From Escherichia phage vB_Eco_Solly: DNA of 64,000 bases. This document shows positions 10,533 through 62,755 of this stretch, one piece after another (within the stretch, counting starts at the first letter, position 1; each line of letters opens with the position of its first letter). The notes below the pieces were generated by a model that saw only the letters and a list, made by a program, of their open reading frames with translations, ran no database searches and had not been told where the DNA came from. The stretch lies in the sequence record OY720021; one strand, given 5' to 3'. Made by a program: the position numbers and the translations under genes.

Positions 10533-11951
10533 TTATGGATAGGTATAGATGATACCAGTTTCTAAAGCAGTTTTGTGAATGATGTATCCATTACGCGATT
10601 CTTGGACATCAACTTCTGGATAGTCTTTCATCATCTTCTGAAGAGTGTAACGATGCAGGTAGTATTTACTATCTGGATCTTCAGTTTTCCAATCTTTACC
10701 TTCTTCAGTCATTTTTTGGATTTCATCCATAACCCACCAACCGCACCAGATGTAAGCTGAGCTACGGTGTGGAAGAGGATGAACATAAGGTAATTCACCT
10801 TCTGGTTCTGGAGCAACTTTATCAGTTACCTGAACTTGACCTTCTGCCGTAATAGTTTTGCTATCATAATCAGCAGCAGTAACAGTTGCAGTAACTTCAA
10901 TAGTTTGACTTCCAATAGATGAGGTATCAACTGTATATACATTAGTTGACCCTTCTACAGGAGAAGAATCTTTCTTCCATGAATACTCAATTTGCGCTTC
11001 TTCTGGAGCATCAGTGACATTAGCAGTAAATGTAGCCGAAGCATCTTGCTGAACGTTAATAGAAGGAGGAGACAATGTAACCTGTGGATTCATTGTCTTC
11101 TTATTAACCGTTAATGATACTTCATTCGAAGTAACTTCCTTTTCATTGTAATTTTCAGCAGTTACTTGGGCTACGCATTTAATTCTTTTTACTCCACTTG
11201 TAGTTGGAGTATAGTTAAATGTAGAGTTAGTTTCTCCACCAACTTGTGAATCATCTACATACCACTGATACGTAGCAGATGCTCCATCAGGTTGAGAAGC
11301 TAAGGCAGCAGTAAATTGAACTGGGGTTCCGATTACTCCTGCTGGAGGACTATCAGGAGTTACTGCCAAGGTAGTTGTCTGCTCCTTTTTATTAACAGTC
11401 AGTGATACTTCATTAGAAGTAACGCTTAGTGCATCATAATCTGTCGCAGTTACTTGAGCCACACACTTAATTCTTTTTACCCCGCTTTCGGCAGGAGTGT
11501 AATTGAACGTAGCGTTAGTTGCTTCGCCCACAGGAGAATCATCTACATACCATTGATAAGTAGCGTTTGCGCCCGATGGCTGCGAAGCTAAAGCGGCAGT
11601 AAATTCAATAGCTGTTCCGATTACTCCAGCGTCAGGGCTATTAGGAGTTACAGCTAAGGTGGTCGTTTGTGTCTTATTTTGAACTGTGATAGTTGTAGTA
11701 GCTTCTGCTGTTTCAGCATCAGTATCTGGGACTGGGTTTGTTGCAACTACTTTAATAGTCTTTTGACCGGCAGGTCCTTTTAATACATAATTAAAAGTTG
11801 CTTCAGCTCCATCTTGTGGAACATCATCTACAGTCCAAGCATATGTAATAGGTCCATCTCCAGTTTGACCACTGGGTGTAGCAGTAAACTGCTGAGTCTG
11901 ATCTATAACTCCAGTAGGTGTTTTAGGAGTTATATCAACTGTAAAAGCCAT
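10533..11951 (-). CDS. hoc: Hoc outer capsid decoration protein with four Ig-like domains plus C-terminal capsid-binding domain
   Basis: 472 aa; conserved C-terminal capsid-binding segment (EGELPYVHPLPHRSSAYIWCGWW...); internal 96-aa tandem repeat (residues 95-190 and 191-286). Confidence 0.93.
   Translation of the reverse strand: MAFTVDITPKTPTGVIDQTQQFTATPSGQTGDGPITYAWTVDDVPQDGAEATFNYVLKGPAGQKTIKVVATNPVPDTDAETAEATTTITVQNKTQTTTLAVTPNSPDAGVIGTAIEFTAALASQPSGANATYQWYVDDSPVGEATNATFNYTPAESGVKRIKCVAQVTATDYDALSVTSNEVSLTVNKKEQTTTLAVTPDSPPAGVIGTPVQFTAALASQPDGASATYQWYVDDSQVGGETNSTFNYTPTTSGVKRIKCVAQVTAENYNEKEVTSNEVSLTVNKKTMNPQVTLSPPSINVQQDASATFTANVTDAPEEAQIEYSWKKDSSPVEGSTNVYTVDTSSIGSQTIEVTATVTAADYDSKTITAEGQVQVTDKVAPEPEGELPYVHPLPHRSSAYIWCGWWVMDEIQKMTEEGKDWKTEDPDSKYYLHRYTLQKMMKDYPEVDVQESRNGYIIHKTALETGIIYTYP
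11094..11669 (-). repeat. tandem direct duplication (2 x 288 bp) inside hoc encoding two near-identical Ig-like domains
   Basis: protein residues 95-190 and 191-286 align with few substitutions; DNA units visibly similar. Confidence 0.85.
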
Positions 11952-22729: not shown

Positions 22730-22732
22730 CAA

Positions 22733-22752
22733 TGGGGACCTTTCGGTCCCCA
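22733..22752 (+). terminator. hairpin terminator after gene 54
   Basis: TGGGGACC-TTTC-GGTCCCCA followed by TATTTTTATTT. Confidence 0.75.
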
Positions 22753-22757
22753 TATTT

Positions 22758-23048
22758 TTATTTACGGAATGAAATAAAAGCAGCAACTGAAGCAACTAAA
22801 CTGTCTTCAATATAAACCTCAATTTTTACCGGAGCTTCTGACTCAAATTTACCTGTTACTACACCTTGGAAAATACTTTCAGTCTGTTCTGGCTTTGAAA
22901 AATTTTCAGAAGGAAAAATTCCGAACTTTTTATCTGTTCCAAAAATTTTGATAAATTCATCGTAAACTGCTTCATTAAAAGCATTATCAGCAGGAATAAC
23001 GCCTTCAACTACAAGTTCTTGACCCAAAAAGCGCAAAGAAGATTTCAT
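22758..23048 (-). CDS. hypothetical protein, 96 aa
   Basis: ORF preceded by GAGG Shine-Dalgarno and a GTTTAC-type early promoter (23080-23109). Confidence 0.6.
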   Translation of the reverse strand: MKSSLRFLGQELVVEGVIPADNAFNEAVYDEFIKIFGTDKKFGIFPSENFSKPEQTESIFQGVVTGKFESEAPVKIEVYIEDSLVASVAAFISFRK

Positions 23049-23079
23049 TTTGTGTTCCTCATGTTATGTCAGTAAGACT

Positions 23080-23109
23080 ACTATAACACAACATGAGGGA
23101 CTTGTAAAC
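23080..23109 (-). promoter_or_regulatory. early sigma70 promoter (GTTTAC -35, TATAGT -10) within a duplicated 53-bp module
   Basis: minus-strand GTTTAC...18 nt...TATAGT, then GAGG SD and ATG of the 96-aa ORF. Confidence 0.6.
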
Positions 23110-25166
23110 TACATTTTGAACTTTTTAGACATTCCGTTGATGTTAACCAAAGAAGCTAAGATTTGAGAAACTTCGTTTTCCTCTTCTTTTGATTCTTCTA
23201 CAAGGAATTGATTAAATCCAGTCATTGGACGAACTTCACCAGTTTCCATCAAATGATCGCCATCATATACTGATTCCTCTAATTGTTCAGAAGGAGGAAC
23301 GATTGTACCTTCGATTAGATACTTGTTATAAGCAGTTTCTTTCATAAAGTAAGTACTTACTTTATTAATCTTCAGTAAAATTCCACGTGGTAGAATAACT
23401 TCAGCTTCTGATGGAAATCCTGATAAATGACCTGGAACGATAACTTTGATTCGCTCAGCTCCTTTAATTACCATACCCACGCTAGTTTCAGCATCTTCAT
23501 TAGCATATGTAGAATGACTACCCATATGCATCAAATCTTCTGCATCAATGGAACCTTCTCCTTCACCAGAAAATACTGCGCCAGAATCATCTAGAGCCAT
23601 ATAGTTTTTACCATGCTCACCGAAGATATTTGGTTTAAGCGATGTGGATACGAAGTTCTTGAAATAGAACATTTTATTTTCAATGTTATGACGCAAAGTT
23701 TTAAAGGTAACTTCTTGCCCACGATAAAGAGTAGTTCCTGGAGGAAGAACTGAACCTTTAGCAAATGCAGAATCCAACGTCTCGATGTGTTTAATAGCTC
23801 GTTCCATATATTCTTCACGGGTAGAATCAGGTTTACCTAAAAGGAACGAGTTCATTTCAACATATGAATCTGCACAATAATCTTCAATTACATCAGACTC
23901 AGCCTGAGTTAATCCTTTTGGAGTTACTTCAGTGCTTGCGTATTCATATGCCTGAGCGGCAGATTCATTAATCAATTTATAAATGCCATTCATGACAAAT
24001 TGAATAATAGCTGTCTTTTCATCTGGTGTAGCTTTAGAACCTTTAACTAAATCATTGATAATTTTCTTAATAACATCAAAGCTATTAGAAATATTAATGT
24101 CAGCAAGATCGCTTAAAATTTTATCAGTTTTATAATCAAAGAATTCTTTATTCTTTAAATATTCTTGAGAACCTTGATATGTTATATCGCTCTGCAACTT
24201 GATAGATGGATCACGTAAACGTGCATGGGCTAATGCAATATGATTTCGGAAACTTTCTAGTTCATAATCGTTAGATTTAAAACGAGAAGCACTTCTCATA
24301 CCACCGATAGCTCCTTTGCTAAAGTTTGAACCAATCTGAATAACGCCAGAGTTCATCGGACCTTCTGCTTTATATACCGGAACTTTAGATTCAAACTCTT
24401 GATATTTCTTAGCAGCGAAGCTATCACCCTGAAGTGAAGCATCAACAGTAGAATATTGAGCTTGTGCTGCTAATCGACGACTAATTTTAGTTTTCTGAAT
24501 AACAGCTTGATCCGTGCGCTTATCATTTTCTAAAGCAATAGAAGCAGCAACAGCGACAGCTTTAGGAACAGCATTACCTGTTTTAACGTCTACATAAACA
24601 TCACCAACCTTTGATTCAACTTTTGTGAATAACTCAGTTGAAATAGGAGGTACACCTGGAATGTCTTCTAAATTGGCATTTTTACGGTAAACCATAATAT
24701 ATGCATATTTCTTATCATAGTCCCAGATTTCCTTTAAAAGAACATATCGACCTGCTCCTTTAGTACGTACTAAACGGTCAGCAATAACTTGCATTTGACG
24801 AGCTGCGCCATTTGTTTTACTTTTTAGTACGCGGAATAGGCATGCGTCGATTTTATACTGTTTCATTGTTTGAAGAGCAGTATCAAAAACAGCATTAATG
24901 ACGCCAATTGGATTTCCACCCAAGTTTCTAAGCTTGACTAACGATAATTTCTCATTAACACCTATCATTACGATATGCATCATTTTGTCGCCTGGCTTAA
25001 CGTTTTTATTCGTATCACCGCCAGAGGTGTATGTACAAAATCTAAATCCAGGAAGCACGCTTTCTTCACCGGCTTGAATAGCAAAAATTTGTGGTATTTT
25101 ATGCTTAGGATTTAAGTTAACAACCGGCGCCGAAGCGCCGTCAAATAATTCTGTAATAAGTTCCAT
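23109..25166 (-). CDS. Alt-like ADP-ribosyltransferase paralog (685 aa)
   Basis: N-terminus MELITELFD... shared with the neighbouring Alt; R-S-E type motifs YRGQ, STS, EAEVILPRG in C-terminal domain. Confidence 0.85.
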   Translation of the reverse strand: MELITELFDGASAPVVNLNPKHKIPQIFAIQAGEESVLPGFRFCTYTSGGDTNKNVKPGDKMMHIVMIGVNEKLSLVKLRNLGGNPIGVINAVFDTALQTMKQYKIDACLFRVLKSKTNGAARQMQVIADRLVRTKGAGRYVLLKEIWDYDKKYAYIMVYRKNANLEDIPGVPPISTELFTKVESKVGDVYVDVKTGNAVPKAVAVAASIALENDKRTDQAVIQKTKISRRLAAQAQYSTVDASLQGDSFAAKKYQEFESKVPVYKAEGPMNSGVIQIGSNFSKGAIGGMRSASRFKSNDYELESFRNHIALAHARLRDPSIKLQSDITYQGSQEYLKNKEFFDYKTDKILSDLADINISNSFDVIKKIINDLVKGSKATPDEKTAIIQFVMNGIYKLINESAAQAYEYASTEVTPKGLTQAESDVIEDYCADSYVEMNSFLLGKPDSTREEYMERAIKHIETLDSAFAKGSVLPPGTTLYRGQEVTFKTLRHNIENKMFYFKNFVSTSLKPNIFGEHGKNYMALDDSGAVFSGEGEGSIDAEDLMHMGSHSTYANEDAETSVGMVIKGAERIKVIVPGHLSGFPSEAEVILPRGILLKINKVSTYFMKETAYNKYLIEGTIVPPSEQLEESVYDGDHLMETGEVRPMTGFNQFLVEESKEEENEVSQILASLVNINGMSKKFKM

Positions 25167-25169
25167 GAT

Positions 25170-27266
25170 TTATCCTTGAACGAACTTGTAAGGCATGTTT
25201 GTAATATCTATGCAAGACGCAATAATTCCAAGAGATGATTCTACTTTCTGTTTAACGTTTGATGAAACAAATGATGCAAAGTCAACTCTGTCTTCTATTT
25301 CAATATCACCTGTCATTGCAACCAATTCACCAGTTTCCATTAAATGGTCTCCGTCATAGATTACCGATTCAGTGAGCTCTTCCGTGGTCATAACTTCAGC
25401 TTGAATGAGTTTTGTATTATTAGATGTTGTTCCGTCATTATTAGAAGCATCAGTTATTTTATTAACTTTGACCATCAATCCACGTGGTAGAATAACTTCA
25501 GCTTCTGTTGCTATTCCGAGACTTCCTGGATATACAACATTAACTTTATGAGCTCCATCAATTGCCCATCCTATTTGAACTTTAACGTATTCAGGATTTT
25601 CTTTATACGCTCTTATTTCGTTTGGATTAATAGTTATTCCTTCTTCATTTTTATCAACTGTTAATTCGTTGCGAGCTTCTGGTTCTAAAAGACCAATACC
25701 AGCGTGTGTAATTCCAAAACGTCCAAAAATGATAGGAGTTAAAGAAGTAGATACAAAATTTCTAAAATAGAACACTTTATTTTTAACTAACGCTTCATAT
25801 ATAGGAGCAGTCATACTTTGAGCACGATAAACTGTAATGCCTTCTGGTATACGGTCACCATTTTCAAAAGCTGAATCTAAGTTATTTATAGCAGATTCAA
25901 TTTCTTTTTCACTCATTACATCATATCGTTCTGGATTGTAACGACCTAAAAGAAGATTATTGATGTCAGTATATCCTGAACCGCAATATTCTCTAATGCC
26001 ACGCTTTTGTGATGGAGTATATTTAGAACCATCGCGGGCAATAGTAATATCAATCATTGGACCAGCACCAATTCCAGAAAAACTGTAAATCATTCGTTTG
26101 AGGAATTTAGTTTTTGCTGCGTTCCAGGAATTTTTAGTTATTTCTTCCCAGACTTCATCTGGTTGTCCTTTACGATTTTTATTATGATTAGCAAGCCATT
26201 TATCTTTATAATCTTCAAAGAATTGATTTACAGCTGCTGCGTATTTCTCTAAACATTTTATTGAAGTAGTTGGTTCATTTTTAATTGCATTAAAAATTAC
26301 TTCTTTAATTTTTTCTGAAACTTCACCGACTTGACTCATTGGAAAGAATTTATAATCATAGTGAAGTTCATCTGCCGTTCCTTCAGCAATAATTTTTGCT
26401 GCCTTTGTTTTAGAAGCTAATGAATTAATTCCAATTTTCATTTCTTCTGCTTCGGGAATTAAAGGTGCAGTAGCTGGTTTATTAAAATTAGCTGCTGTAG
26501 ATTCATACTTCTGGAATAATTCACTTTCAAATCTAGAAGATTCCAATGACTGACTTTGTGCAATTGCTCTACGGGAAATTTTAACTTTAACGATTACGGC
26601 TTGGTCAGAACGTTTATCATTTTCTTGTGCAATTGATGCTGCAATTGCCTCATTTTTAGTTACTTGGGCTCCAGTATCTTTATTGATATAAACATCACCG
26701 ACTTTCGATTCAACTTTAGTAAAGAGCTCGGTACTAATTTCCGGAACTCCTGGAATGTCTTCTAGTGATACATTTTTGCGATGTATAAGAATATATGCAT
26801 ACTTTTTATCGTAATCCCAGAGTTCCTTAAGAAGGACGTATCTACCACCTGAACGACTACGGATAAGTCTATCAGCAATAACTTGAATTTGTCGAGCTTG
26901 ACCGGCGGTTTTAGACTTAAGAATACGAAGCATACAAGCATCAATTTTATATTGACGCATTGTTTGCATTGCAACAGTAAAAACTGAATTGATATAATTA
27001 ATTGGGCTTGGACCAAGACCTTTTAATTTAGCAATTGAACCTTTAGCAGTTAATGTAAAAGGAACAATATGCATCATTTTATCGCCCATCTTTAAATCGC
27101 GATTAGTATCACCTCCAGATGTATAGGTACATAAACGAAAGCCTGGTTGTTCAATTGCATCATCAACATGAACTGAAAAAATTTGTGGTATTTTCTTCTT
27201 TGGATTTAAGTTTGTAATCGGAAGAGTAGTATCTTCGTCAAATAATTCTGTAATGAGTTCCATCAT
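25170..27266 (-). CDS. alt: Alt ADP-ribosyltransferase (698 aa), virion-packaged type
   Basis: R-S-E motifs YRAQ, FVSTSL, EAEVILPRG; TATAAATA late box on minus strand at 27287-27294; adjacent to ligase gene as in T4. Confidence 0.85.
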   Translation of the reverse strand: MMELITELFDEDTTLPITNLNPKKKIPQIFSVHVDDAIEQPGFRLCTYTSGGDTNRDLKMGDKMMHIVPFTLTAKGSIAKLKGLGPSPINYINSVFTVAMQTMRQYKIDACMLRILKSKTAGQARQIQVIADRLIRSRSGGRYVLLKELWDYDKKYAYILIHRKNVSLEDIPGVPEISTELFTKVESKVGDVYINKDTGAQVTKNEAIAASIAQENDKRSDQAVIVKVKISRRAIAQSQSLESSRFESELFQKYESTAANFNKPATAPLIPEAEEMKIGINSLASKTKAAKIIAEGTADELHYDYKFFPMSQVGEVSEKIKEVIFNAIKNEPTTSIKCLEKYAAAVNQFFEDYKDKWLANHNKNRKGQPDEVWEEITKNSWNAAKTKFLKRMIYSFSGIGAGPMIDITIARDGSKYTPSQKRGIREYCGSGYTDINNLLLGRYNPERYDVMSEKEIESAINNLDSAFENGDRIPEGITVYRAQSMTAPIYEALVKNKVFYFRNFVSTSLTPIIFGRFGITHAGIGLLEPEARNELTVDKNEEGITINPNEIRAYKENPEYVKVQIGWAIDGAHKVNVVYPGSLGIATEAEVILPRGLMVKVNKITDASNNDGTTSNNTKLIQAEVMTTEELTESVIYDGDHLMETGELVAMTGDIEIEDRVDFASFVSSNVKQKVESSLGIIASCIDITNMPYKFVQG

Positions 27267-27286: not shown

Positions 27287-27294
27287 TATTTATA
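27287..27294 (-). promoter_or_regulatory. late promoter box TATAAATA on minus strand upstream of alt
   Basis: reverse complement TATTTATA about 20 nt upstream of alt ATG. Confidence 0.6.
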
Positions 27295-32009: not shown

Positions 32010-32119
32010 TTTATTCTCCTTTGTTTGTGTAAGATAATACTATCACAAAGGAACTATACTGTAAACAACTTTATGCAATCTTTGGAAAATAAAAAAGGAC
32101 TCCCGAAGGAGTCCTCAAC

Positions 32120-32338
32120 TTATGCTTTCTGCTTACCAAAACGAGAAGCATCATCTCGAAGAACCGCACGTGCTCGACGCATGATCTTCTCAACAGTTTG
32201 ATTGATACGAGAGTTCGACACACGCTTGTAGCCAGCGCGTTTAGAATCACCAACTTTCTTTTCAACTGCTTTCTTTGCTTTAACTTGTTTTGCCATTATA
32301 AATTCTCTTTTAAATGAAAATGCAGGACTTATTGACAT
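32120..32338 (-). CDS. small basic protein (start may be the internal ATG giving MAKQVKAKK...)
   Basis: Lys/Arg-rich 58-72 aa ORF; hairpin-containing GC-rich region downstream. Confidence 0.5.
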   Translation of the reverse strand: MSISPAFSFKREFIMAKQVKAKKAVEKKVGDSKRAGYKRVSNSRINQTVEKIMRRARAVLRDDASRFGKQKA

Positions 32339-35068: not shown

Positions 35069-35130
35069 TTCAATTTCCTCATTTATTTTGGTAGAGCTAT
35101 AATATCACAACTCTACCGTAAAGTAAACTA

Positions 35131-37548: not shown

Positions 37549-37898
37549 TTAGAAAGGTCCTGGATGTCTTCTGCGAACTTGTTGAAGGAGTTATTGATTT
37601 GTTTTTCAACCAATCCTGGCTTATGAGCCACCACATCCGCCTTCTTTGCGTCTTTGCGCAGTTTTTCATTTTCACGCTCAATAGCAGCAATTGCCTCACG
37701 ATTTTTAGTATTCATCGCATCAATATAATTATACTGAATTCGCAAATTATTTAATGCTAAGGCGTTTTCATTGGCTGTTTTTGTAATTTCAGTAACTGAT
37801 GTTTCTAATCTTTCTACCTTATTTTTTAAAATAATAGATGTTCCGCCAAATGCTATTACAAGTAATAGCAATCCAGCTGTTGTATTACTTAATTGCAT
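37545..37898 (-). CDS. membrane-anchored coiled-coil protein
   Basis: 117 aa; N-terminal hydrophobic helix (GLLLLVIAFGGTSIIL) followed by charged coiled-coil-like segment. Confidence 0.55.
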   Translation of the reverse strand: MQLSNTTAGLLLLVIAFGGTSIILKNKVERLETSVTEITKTANENALALNNLRIQYNYIDAMNTKNREAIAAIERENEKLRKDAKKADVVAHKPGLVEKQINNSFNKFAEDIQDLSK

Positions 37899-38395
37899 AA
37901 AGTTTTAATAACCTCTATAATATCGTCTTGAGAAAGACCGTTAATTAAAATATGATGTTCAGCTGGAGATTTAGAAATTTTAAAGCATGCCTCAACATCT
38001 TCTGCCATATCCGATGCACTACGATTTGGATTACTAATTCCAAGACGATGTTTTCCCGTTAAAGGATTAACGATGATATAGCATTTGCAGCTATTGATAT
38101 GAACATTAGGTTGAGTCTGATTAATGAACACTTCACAATCATACTTAGCGAGTTGATTTTCTAAAAAGACTTTCATCTCTTCAACCGCATCAGGAAGCAT
38201 ATCACGGGCTTGCTCAAGACGACGATTTCGATATTCTTTAATGGTCGTTTTCCGCTTGACTTGCTTAGCTAAATCTTTCTTAAGATCGGTGATATATCCA
38301 ACTCGACGATTTCCTTTGAATACAGAAATCCCATCTGTAGTATCACCGTATGCTTCAACGACCATTTCAGTAGTAATAAGCTGCAAATCCATCAT
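37889..38395 (-). CDS. alc: Alc-like protein (host transcription shutoff on cytosine DNA), assigned by position and size
   Basis: 168 aa between pseT cluster and rnlA as in T4; early promoter module at 38424-38453. Confidence 0.7.
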   Translation of the reverse strand: MMDLQLITTEMVVEAYGDTTDGISVFKGNRRVGYITDLKKDLAKQVKRKTTIKEYRNRRLEQARDMLPDAVEEMKVFLENQLAKYDCEVFINQTQPNVHINSCKCYIIVNPLTGKHRLGISNPNRSASDMAEDVEACFKISKSPAEHHILINGLSQDDIIEVIKTLCN

Positions 38396-38423
38396 AAAGT
38401 CCTCATGTTATGTCAGTAAGACT

Positions 38424-38453
38424 ACTATAACACAACACGAGGGACTTGTAAAC
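38424..38453 (-). promoter_or_regulatory. early sigma70 promoter, second copy of the duplicated 53-bp module (upstream of alc)
   Basis: identical to 23057-23109 apart from one substitution. Confidence 0.6.
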
Positions 38454-38456
38454 AGC

Positions 38457-40044
<1,588 letters not shown>

Positions 40045-62178: not shown

Positions 62179-62453
62179 TCGAAATAATCTTCAATTTCAT
62201 AATCATGGACGTAAATCATTATAGTTTTTAATACATCATCAATACTTTTTCCTGGAGCTGGAATTACGTAGAAATATCCTGCTTTTGAGAGGTCTTTATA
62301 AGTTCCAATCAAGAAATCATTATTCTCAAGATGTAGTTCTTCAACTAATTCATTAACAATTGAATGGTATAGGTTTGGTAGAAACTTATATAGCTTTTCT
62401 AGAATATCAATTTTGATTGTGTATTGAACCACGGATTGAGAATCAATAATCAT
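62175..62453 (-). CDS. arn: Arn anti-restriction protein (McrBC inhibitor)
   Basis: 92 aa acidic protein next to asiA, as for T4 arn. Confidence 0.75.
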   Translation of the reverse strand: MIIDSQSVVQYTIKIDILEKLYKFLPNLYHSIVNELVEELHLENNDFLIGTYKDLSKAGYFYVIPAPGKSIDDVLKTIMIYVHDYEIEDYFE

Positions 62454-62536
62454 AGACCTTCCCCTTATGTTTCTGTTTGCGATTAGATTCTTTAAACGCT
62501 TTCTTCTTATCCTTATGAACAGAAGCTTTATTAAAA

Positions 62537-62755
62537 TTATGTTTTGCGACTAAATTGTTCATAGTGCTGAATTACCTCTCTTAAACATTTGCATGTGAAT
62601 GAAAACTTTTTAGCTACACCACATTCAAATATATGTTCTCTTAAATCACGTGTATCGGTATATCCCATCTCAACGATAAAATGCCGTATTAGATTTTTAT
62701 CTTTATCATTGAGAGAATTAAAATAATCGGATTTTGAATTAATTTCCCTGGCCAA
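62537..62755 (-). CDS. hypothetical protein (arn.x region)
   Basis: 72-aa ORF. Confidence 0.5.
   Translation of the reverse strand: MAREINSKSDYFNSLNDKDKNLIRHFIVEMGYTDTRDLREHIFECGVAKKFSFTCKCLREVIQHYEQFSRKT

Follow-up and report, generated by a model that had tools for sequence, protein, structure and literature searches.

A duplicated early-promoter cassette upstream of alc and alt.-3 in T4-like phages contains a stem-loop predicted to mask the Shine-Dalgarno site in read-through RNA

Why should two unrelated genes of a T4-like phage, far from one another in the genome, be preceded by almost the same promoter and leader? The question is raised by a 64,000-nucleotide stretch of Escherichia phage vB_Eco_Solly (record OY720021; hereafter the window), in which a first-pass annotation had noticed a 53-bp sequence that recurs with one substitution. 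Alignment of both copies bears this out and adds one base to its length: on the minus strand the repeat measures 54 bp (Table 1), and its sole mismatch is an A at position 23094 (copy A) that corresponds to a G at 38438 (copy B). Similarity starts abruptly at the -35 hexamer on one side and stops just as abruptly at the base after GAGG on the other; outside these edges the flanks are unrelated sequence and fail to align. Sharp edges and unalignable flanks show that no larger coding segment was duplicated along with the copies, a possibility that the annotation had raised, and both copies are indeed intergenic. A search of the window for further copies at up to three mismatches returned exactly these two sites, against none expected from 100 dinucleotide-preserving shuffles, and the other early promoters of the window share the hexamers only, which excludes chance or plain consensus similarity as the source of the match.

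The duplication extends well beyond this phage. The window belongs to a Tequatrovirus; its identity is 99.9% to Salmonella phage UAB_60 and about 98% to many T4-like phages. Nearly all Tequatrovirus records, T4 included, contain two matches to the cassette, and in reference T4 each closely precedes a gene start, 123032 for alt.-3 and 136275 for alc. Since T4 itself has both copies, the duplicated cassette is a long-sequenced feature of T4 rather than a peculiarity of the window. Elsewhere in the window, a repeat of another kind (family D2) occupies 11097-11672, where two copies of a 288-bp tandem direct repeat share 74% identity.

Each copy possesses the anatomy that had been read from its motifs in the first pass. 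On the minus strand, both run in the order GTTTAC, 18 nt, TATAGT, a 19-nt stretch, GAGG and ATG, with a TG at -15/-14 that makes the -10 element an extended one; GAGG is separated from ATG by 8 nt in copy A and 5 nt in copy B. By these motifs, the two are complete cassettes of the sigma-70-type T4 early promoter, and each does stand before a different gene, the products of alt.-3 (Pfam DUF5498) and alc (Pfam ALC) being unrelated. The consensus T4 early promoter (Pe) consists of an UP element, GTTTAC, TGn and TATAAT. Both copies match it in the -35 hexamer, spacer length, TGn and -10 box, and the genes that they serve are classed as early; however, an identity of 53/54 that continues through the leader to the Shine-Dalgarno (SD) sequence far exceeds consensus likeness. 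Transcription usually starts 7 nt from the -10 box, and we placed the predicted starts of both copies (near 23073 and 38417) by this distance. A literature search, with Miller et al. 2003 outside its reach, found no mapped transcription start at alc or alt.-3.

Table 1. Positions of the two cassettes, their predicted elements and related features (window coordinates unless another record is named).
Feature	Position	Strand	Remarks
Copy A, 54-bp cassette (-35 to SD+1)	23056..23109	-	In gap from alt.-2 stop to alt.-3 start; repeat family D8
Copy B, 54-bp cassette	38400..38453	-	In gap from rnlA stop to alc start; difference at 38438
alt.-3, 96 aa, Pfam DUF5498	22758..23048	-	Served by copy A
alc, inhibitor of host transcription, Pfam ALC	37889..38395	-	Served by copy B
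alt.-2, full-length Alt paralogue, 685 aa	23109..25166	-	Transcripts would run into copy A
rnlA (gene 63, RNA ligase 1)	38457..39617	-	Transcripts would run into copy B
-35 hexamer GTTTAC, copy A	23104..23109	-	Overlapped by alt.-2 stop TAG (23109-23111)
-10 hexamer TATAGT after TGn, copy A	23080..23085	-	Predicted +1 near 23073
-35 hexamer GTTTAC, copy B	38448..38453	-	rnlA stop TAA at 38457-38459
-10 hexamer TATAGT, copy B	38424..38429	-	Predicted +1 near 38417
Shine-Dalgarno GAGG of alt.-3	23057..23060	-	Fully paired in read-through RNA (predicted fold)
Shine-Dalgarno GAGG of alc	38401..38404	-	Fully paired in read-through RNA (predicted fold)
RNA hairpin, copy A (predicted)	23057..23098	-	5' strand 23085-23098, 3' strand 23057-23070
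RNA hairpin, copy B (predicted)	38401..38442	-	Geometry as copy A; A-to-G change gives a G.U pair
Bidirectional terminator-like hairpin just 3' of alt.-3	22732..22753	.	Ends the minus-strand transcription unit
Late-promoter motif TATAAATA upstream of alt	27287..27294	-	Late read-through into the alt.-3 cassette likely starts here
regB hairpin/promoter	T4 OZ035787.1 135562 (locus L097)	-	Reference T4: about 62.78 kb, with regB (62279-62740) downstream
Duplicated T4 promoter core	OZ035787.1 75235 (L096), 123737 (L097)	-	Contains spacer hairpin CCACAAGGATGTGG

What the shared leader might do is suggested by its folding. The first-pass annotation had pointed to a 9-bp inverted repeat, CCTCATGTT/AACATGAGG, around the -10 box; this repeat is exact in copy A, but in copy B the 5' arm reads CCTCGTGTT and leaves a mismatch in the DNA. 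RNA folding of both copies reveals that the 9 bp form the core of a longer, interrupted hairpin of approximately 18 bp, in which 14 bp are followed by a 2-nt bulge, another 4 bp and a 4-nt loop. The 5' strand of the hairpin is situated between the -35 and -10 elements, and the 3' strand, GACAUAACAUGAGG, is the leader itself and ends in the SD GAGG; the -10 box falls within the 5' strand and the apical stem, at whose base, on the 3' side, the predicted +1 is located. The single difference between the copies replaces an A-U pair by G.U, and the pair is kept in minus-strand RNA while becoming a mismatch in DNA.

The fold distinguishes two kinds of transcript. In RNA that reads through from upstream, the hairpin has a predicted energy of about -23 kcal/mol, z-scores against shuffles of -4.0 (copy A) and -4.4 (copy B), and all four SD bases paired in both the MFE and the centroid structure, whereas RNA beginning after the -10 box shows no significant structure (z about 0). 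Because the predicted start falls between the two strands of the stem, the SD would be masked in read-through RNA and free in RNA made from the cassette's own promoter. The hairpin does not look like an intrinsic terminator: the tails that follow the stem, AACACAAAAUG and ACUUUAUGAUG, are not U-tracts, and a terminator scan is silent at both copies. A permissive Rfam scan of 20000-42000 assigned no family to either copy; a minus-strand match to the Rhizobiales sRNA Atu_C8 at 32081-32164 scored 31.4 bits, below the gathering threshold of 50 (E = 0.008), and is probably due to chance.

Pairing between the SD and the promoter region is widespread among alc leaders of other T4-like genera. Using an alignment of Alc proteins as the query, we collected alc loci from INPHARED phage records and from IMG/VR (where single-protein queries had yielded only 5-6 loci, and alignment queries were used in their place), which together provided 39 unique modules extending from promoter to ATG. 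In 27 of the 39, drawn from many genera, the pairing partner of the SD lies upstream of the point where the -10 box ends, and the own-promoter transcripts of these 27 fold at about 0 kcal/mol. The stems vary by genus (UCUCCAUUUGGUU/AACCAAAUGGAGA, UCCUCAUCA/UGAUGAGGA, AACCUCUCAUUUU/AAAAUGAGAGGUU, GCCUCGUUUGUU/AACAAACGAGG and UCUCCUCAU/AUGAGGAGA), and the anti-SD tracks the SD variant, be it GAGG, GGAG, GGGG or GAGAGG. An alignment-free test, in which 5' and 3' segments were swapped between modules, gave a mean duplex energy of -20.3 kcal/mol for cognate partners versus -11.2 kcal/mol for swapped ones, with the cognate partner ranked top in 13 of 15 cases. Within a gap-free, in-register subgroup of ten alc modules (alignment A5), 92.9% of cells are paired, compared with 37-46% in slid registers; four pairs (10 cells) are altered on both sides, compared with 0-1 pairs when the register is slid; and the covariation score of 0.186, against a shuffle mean of 0.093, was attained by none of 500 shuffles. 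When the requirement was an uninterrupted helix of 10 bp or more with the SD inside it, 14 of 26 distinct alc modules qualified, against 2.2% of shuffles.

Not every measure was as informative. A MAFFT alignment of 26 modules (A3) was dropped for column covariation, its 3' arms being out of register, and the excess of G.U over A.C (10 versus 3) is weak as a sign of strand specificity. Two MFE-based shuffle controls for a masked SD failed to discriminate, with 39% and 34% of shuffles passing; because both are too lenient, the argument is built instead on the length, energy and co-variation of the helices. About one third of the alc modules, namely those of RB69/Mosigvirus and of Acinetobacter and Aeromonas phages, do without SD masking, which must therefore be dispensable at alc. 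The alc counts also overstate the number of independent events, since the sequences are related by descent; despite this kinship, the variety of stems argues for selection on pairing.

A strict scan of the complete T4 genome for early promoters followed by an SD and ATG returned 21 cassettes; three of them, those of alt.-3 (z = -6.4), alc (z = -4.9) and regB (z = -6.6), combine a nested promoter with a hairpin that strongly masks the SD. The regB hairpin, GTTTACTTTTCCTCTTGACTGTGGTATAATTTTTCTATCAGTTAAGAGGAGAATAACATG, has a sequence unrelated to the alc/alt.-3 cassette; in its predicted fold, the early promoter is nested inside and a GGAG SD is masked, and three lineages retain this design, each with a stem of its own. 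The gene is that of RegB (Pfam REGB_T4), an enzyme whose cleavage targets include its own SD and whose activity is inhibited by RNA structure; regB RNA that arises by read-through may therefore escape both translation and cleavage by RegB. In around half of the strict T4 cassettes (30.7, cd.2, dmd and two others are examples), the -10 box is enclosed by a strong hairpin that stops short of the SD. Predicted stem-loops inside early promoters are therefore common in T4, and a reach to the SD is what distinguishes alc and regB and, secondarily, alt.-3. In the window, the minus-strand promoters with -35 starts at 35128 (cd.2) and 31674 (30.7) have inverted repeats of 7-8 bp, GGTAGAG...CTCTACC and GGTACAGG...CCTGTACC, that bracket the -10 box and miss the SD.

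For the hairpin to matter, transcripts from upstream would have to reach it. A terminator scan found nothing terminator-like at either junction, rnlA-alc or alt.-2-alt.-3; its single strong call is the bidirectional hairpin that follows alt.-3, a perfect 9-bp GC-rich stem with T-runs on both strands that lies between the convergent genes 54 and alt.-3. Read-through into alc would come from rnlA and from the nrd/denA middle promoters, and in T4 the middle promoters PI-TevIII and PnrdB have been mapped upstream of rnlA (PMC2988021 Table 1). For alt.-3, the sources would be alt and alt.-2, including the late promoter upstream of alt. Time-resolved omics of T4 classes alc, alt.-3 and regB as early RNA and early protein, and rnlA as early RNA and late protein (PMC9697503 supplement). 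Promoter context and this timing are consistent with masking of the SD in read-through RNA, although they do not prove it. The annotation's suggestion that alc and alt.-3 are co-regulated is plausible, given that both fall in the same early RNA, early protein class in T4 (PMC9697503 supplement). The region directly upstream of copy A is a variable one of Alt paralogues: alt.-2, whose neighbor spans approximately 25170-27221, is a full-length paralogue both here and in RB32, in T4 only the small fragments alt.-1 and alt.-2 are left of it, and in MX01 three full copies are present.

The nearest published relatives of the cassette are the PeSLs (promoter-early stem-loops) of T4-like phages, defined as an intergenic unit of stop codon, early promoter, stem-loop, SD and ATG (Arbiol 2010, PMC2839356; Comeau 2014, PMC4122927). 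PeSLs are repeated across the genome and have been proposed to shuffle as modules; the T4/PST consensus is TTTACW-N17-TAYWAT, and the stem-loop, read as a terminator or attenuator with no mention of translation, takes one of five positions: upstream of the -35 element, over it, in the spacer, over the -10 box, or just before the start (PMC2839356, PMC4122927). Both copies fit this structural definition. They begin intergenically at an upstream stop (in copy A the TAG of alt.-2 overlaps with the -35 hexamer; in copy B the TAA of rnlA is 4 nt upstream of the hexamer), continue with a predicted sigma-70-like early promoter (TTTACA-17-TATAGT with TG at -15/-14), contain a stable stem-loop of about 18 bp (z about -4) that extends from the spacer over the -10 box, and close at the 3' end with GAGG and then ATG; related cassettes also occur at different loci, apparently through recombinational exchange. 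Three features set them apart. The stem-loop reaches the SD, whereas the five published positions end at the transcription start; the role published for PeSLs is termination or attenuation, and not control of translation; and the copies are not a mini-circle pair, since they lie 15.3 kb apart with essential genes between them. Neither copy has a U-tract or a terminator call, which speaks to intrinsic termination but not to attenuation that needs no U-tract.

A second precedent comes from T4 e, soc, 49 and I-TevI, for which it has been established experimentally that long transcripts sequester the SD or AUG in a helix, and that a nested late promoter gives rise to a shorter RNA, lacking the 5' strand, that is translated (PMC3014915 section 29, Uzan and Miller 2010). 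The alc/alt.-3 element shares with these genes an SD that is predicted to lie in a stable helix of upstream transcripts, with co-variation across genera, and a promoter inside the structure, such that its own transcript, from the predicted start, would lose the 5' strand. In those genes, however, the nested promoter is the late motif TATAAATA, a motif search for which found none at copy A or B, and expression is off early and on late; here the promoter is an early sigma-70 one, and expression would be on immediately and off afterwards. Because its nested promoter is early rather than late, the alc/alt.-3 element stands outside that class as described. We conclude that the cassette is a conserved, duplicated member of the PeSL family and that its mechanism most probably resembles nested-promoter translational masking, in an early-promoter version. 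The literature searched, which did not extend to the older primary papers, holds no description of SD masking at alc, alt.-3 or regB.

On this comparison, we consider it fairly probable that the cassette is a PeSL-type early expression unit in which the hairpin hides the SD in read-through RNA and not in RNA from its own promoter. The unit would consist of an upstream stop codon, the -35 hexamer GTTTAC, an extended -10 element (TGnTATAGT), the stem-loop, the SD and ATG, with the stem-loop covering the full span from promoter spacer to SD. Host sigma-70 RNA polymerase would start about 7 nt after the -10 box, inside the hairpin and between its strands, and the resulting RNA would carry the 3' strand alone, unstructured and with its SD free. 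RNA derived from upstream would contain both strands, form the hairpin of about 18 bp and bury GAGG. The two proteins would then be translated only from immediate-early transcripts of their own promoters and would fall silent once early promoters are shut off.

The leading alternative, which we regard as unlikely, is that the stem-loop does no more than has been proposed for PeSLs in general: it would attenuate or terminate transcription from upstream, the cassette would serve mainly as a recombination site, and overlap with the SD would be a by-product of a short intergenic gap. The definition and reporter data for one stem-loop are published (PMC2839356 section 14), and in those experiments the stem-loop lowered downstream reporter expression in a transcriptional fusion, a drop that fits attenuation rather than translational masking (PMC2839356). 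The many T4 early cassettes in which the -10 hairpin stops before the SD also favor this reading, as does the native alt.-3 cassette of other genera, in which the hairpin is confined to the spacer. Attenuation, however, has no need of an anti-SD that co-varies with its partner, yet in many genera the SD itself serves as the 3' strand at alc and regB; nor does a stem that lacks a following U-tract, and at which the terminator scan is empty, look like a terminator. It is possible that the two functions coexist, as an attenuator or recombination role is compatible with SD masking.

Translational coupling, whereby a ribosome ending at the upstream stop would open the base of the helix and free the SD, so that alc and alt.-3 would be translated only while the upstream gene is translated, seems to us distinctly unlikely. 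The geometry across genera is inviting, with the upstream stop 0-9 nt before GTTTAC in most of them (TAGTTTAC is common) and the anti-SD beginning just 7-11 nt after the -35 hexamer. In the window, however, the stop is separated from the anti-SD CCUC by 13 nt in copy A and 17 nt in copy B, which is probably at or beyond the reach of a terminating ribosome, and coupling would make the nested promoter needless.

The first-pass annotation had itself suggested that the inverted repeat could be a DNA operator, an idea that the bracketing of the -10 box invites and that gains some appeal from descriptions of the mechanism of T4 early-promoter shut-off as unknown (PMC2988021, PMC3014915); a dimeric host or phage protein would bind the repeat, or a cruciform would be extruded, and the promoter would be turned off. 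The comparative evidence runs counter to this proposal and makes it highly improbable. Rather than being conserved, the arms differ and co-vary between genera and among T4 promoters, the G.U positions of copy B and of many homologues are mismatches in DNA, and one arm is the SD, which is under translational constraint. Since the stems co-vary, tolerate G.U and have the SD as their 3' arm, the element is better understood as an RNA hairpin than as a protein-binding DNA site. An RNA processing or stability element, such as an RNase III-type site or a 3'-end protector of the rnlA and alt.-2 messages, would suit a long, stable and conserved helix located where the upstream cistron ends but is scarcely to be expected, as it leaves both the SD as 3' strand and the nested promoter unexplained and we found no evidence of cleavage.

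Confirmation of SD masking in read-through RNA would extend the textbook mechanism of e, soc, 49 and I-TevI to early promoters, with alc, regB and alt.-3 as the cases, in a phage that is a reference system for gene regulation. It would supply a structural reason why some immediate-early proteins cease to be made while their coding regions are still transcribed from upstream, and it would give PeSL stem-loops a second, translational role beside attenuation. A more general reading, which we consider quite unlikely, is that the nested stem-loops of T4-like early promoters constitute a system of promoter autonomy that limits the dose of host-takeover genes (alc, regB and Tequatrovirus alt.-3). Were it true, only immediate-early transcripts would be translated, protein synthesis would be switched off independently of mRNA decay, and the -10-bracketing hairpins at about half of T4 early promoters might bear on the rapid shut-off of these promoters. 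For annotators, the cassette is a warning not to mistake near-identical intergenic repeats of T4-like phages for assembly artefacts, since they are regulatory cassettes.

How the same cassette came to serve two genes is suggested by the alt.-3 leaders of related phages. At alt.-3, the SD-masking module is confined to Tequatrovirus, and eight other genera have a different cassette. In six of these (Dhakavirus, Mosigvirus, Gelderlandvirus, Marfavirus, Moonvirus and Karamvirus), alt.-3 has a small hairpin of 4-7 bp that lies wholly within the spacer between the -35 and -10 elements and has a loop that reads, for instance, GGA, AGGA or GGAA, and the SD is free; Kanagawavirus alt.-3 has no clear hairpin. 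Because masking occurs in many genera at alc but only in Tequatrovirus at alt.-3, the native alt.-3 cassette was probably overwritten by a copy of the alc cassette in the ancestor of Tequatrovirus, a direction that follows from parsimony over about nine genera. The copied block extends from GTTTACA to CATGAGGA, two motifs that are common to both types of cassette, and copying may have proceeded by recombination at these short conserved -35 and SD motifs. If so, the pair offers a clean natural case of a regulatory cassette copied from gene to gene, with its end points at the -35 and SD motifs.

The annotation had taken the near-identical cassettes as a sign of modular promoter shuffling, and the comparative data do indicate that a cassette was copied between loci; the idea is not new, since the published PeSL concept already covers it (PMC2839356, PMC4122927). 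Within each of seven Tequatrovirus genomes, 50-54 of 54 positions are identical between copies A and B, and the consensus is the same at both loci. Ongoing gene conversion between the copies finds no support in this small sample of seven genomes, in which each variant is private to one copy.

Other cassettes show traces of exchange as well. The alc leader of RB69, a Mosigvirus (L015, 19015-19082), has a spacer hairpin and no SD masking, and resembles the alt.-3 cassette of RB69 itself, with which it shares ATCAACAACAYGAGGA; judging by this resemblance, a swap may have taken place there in the direction opposite to that in Tequatrovirus. In T4, a promoter core, GTTTACTTT(A/G)CCACAAGGATGTGGTATAAT, is present twice before different genes with 29/30 positions identical, and its spacer hairpin is found also at alt.-3 in Dhakavirus. 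Finally, in the Mosigvirus vB_EcoM_G2469 (L094, 683-745), a related cassette precedes a 66-aa ORF near ndd; its hairpin brackets the -10 box (AGGTAGGA...GTCCTACT), and its leader and SD are identical to those of T4 alt.-3 (ACATGAGGAACACAAAATG), giving it the appearance of a mosaic of cassette parts.
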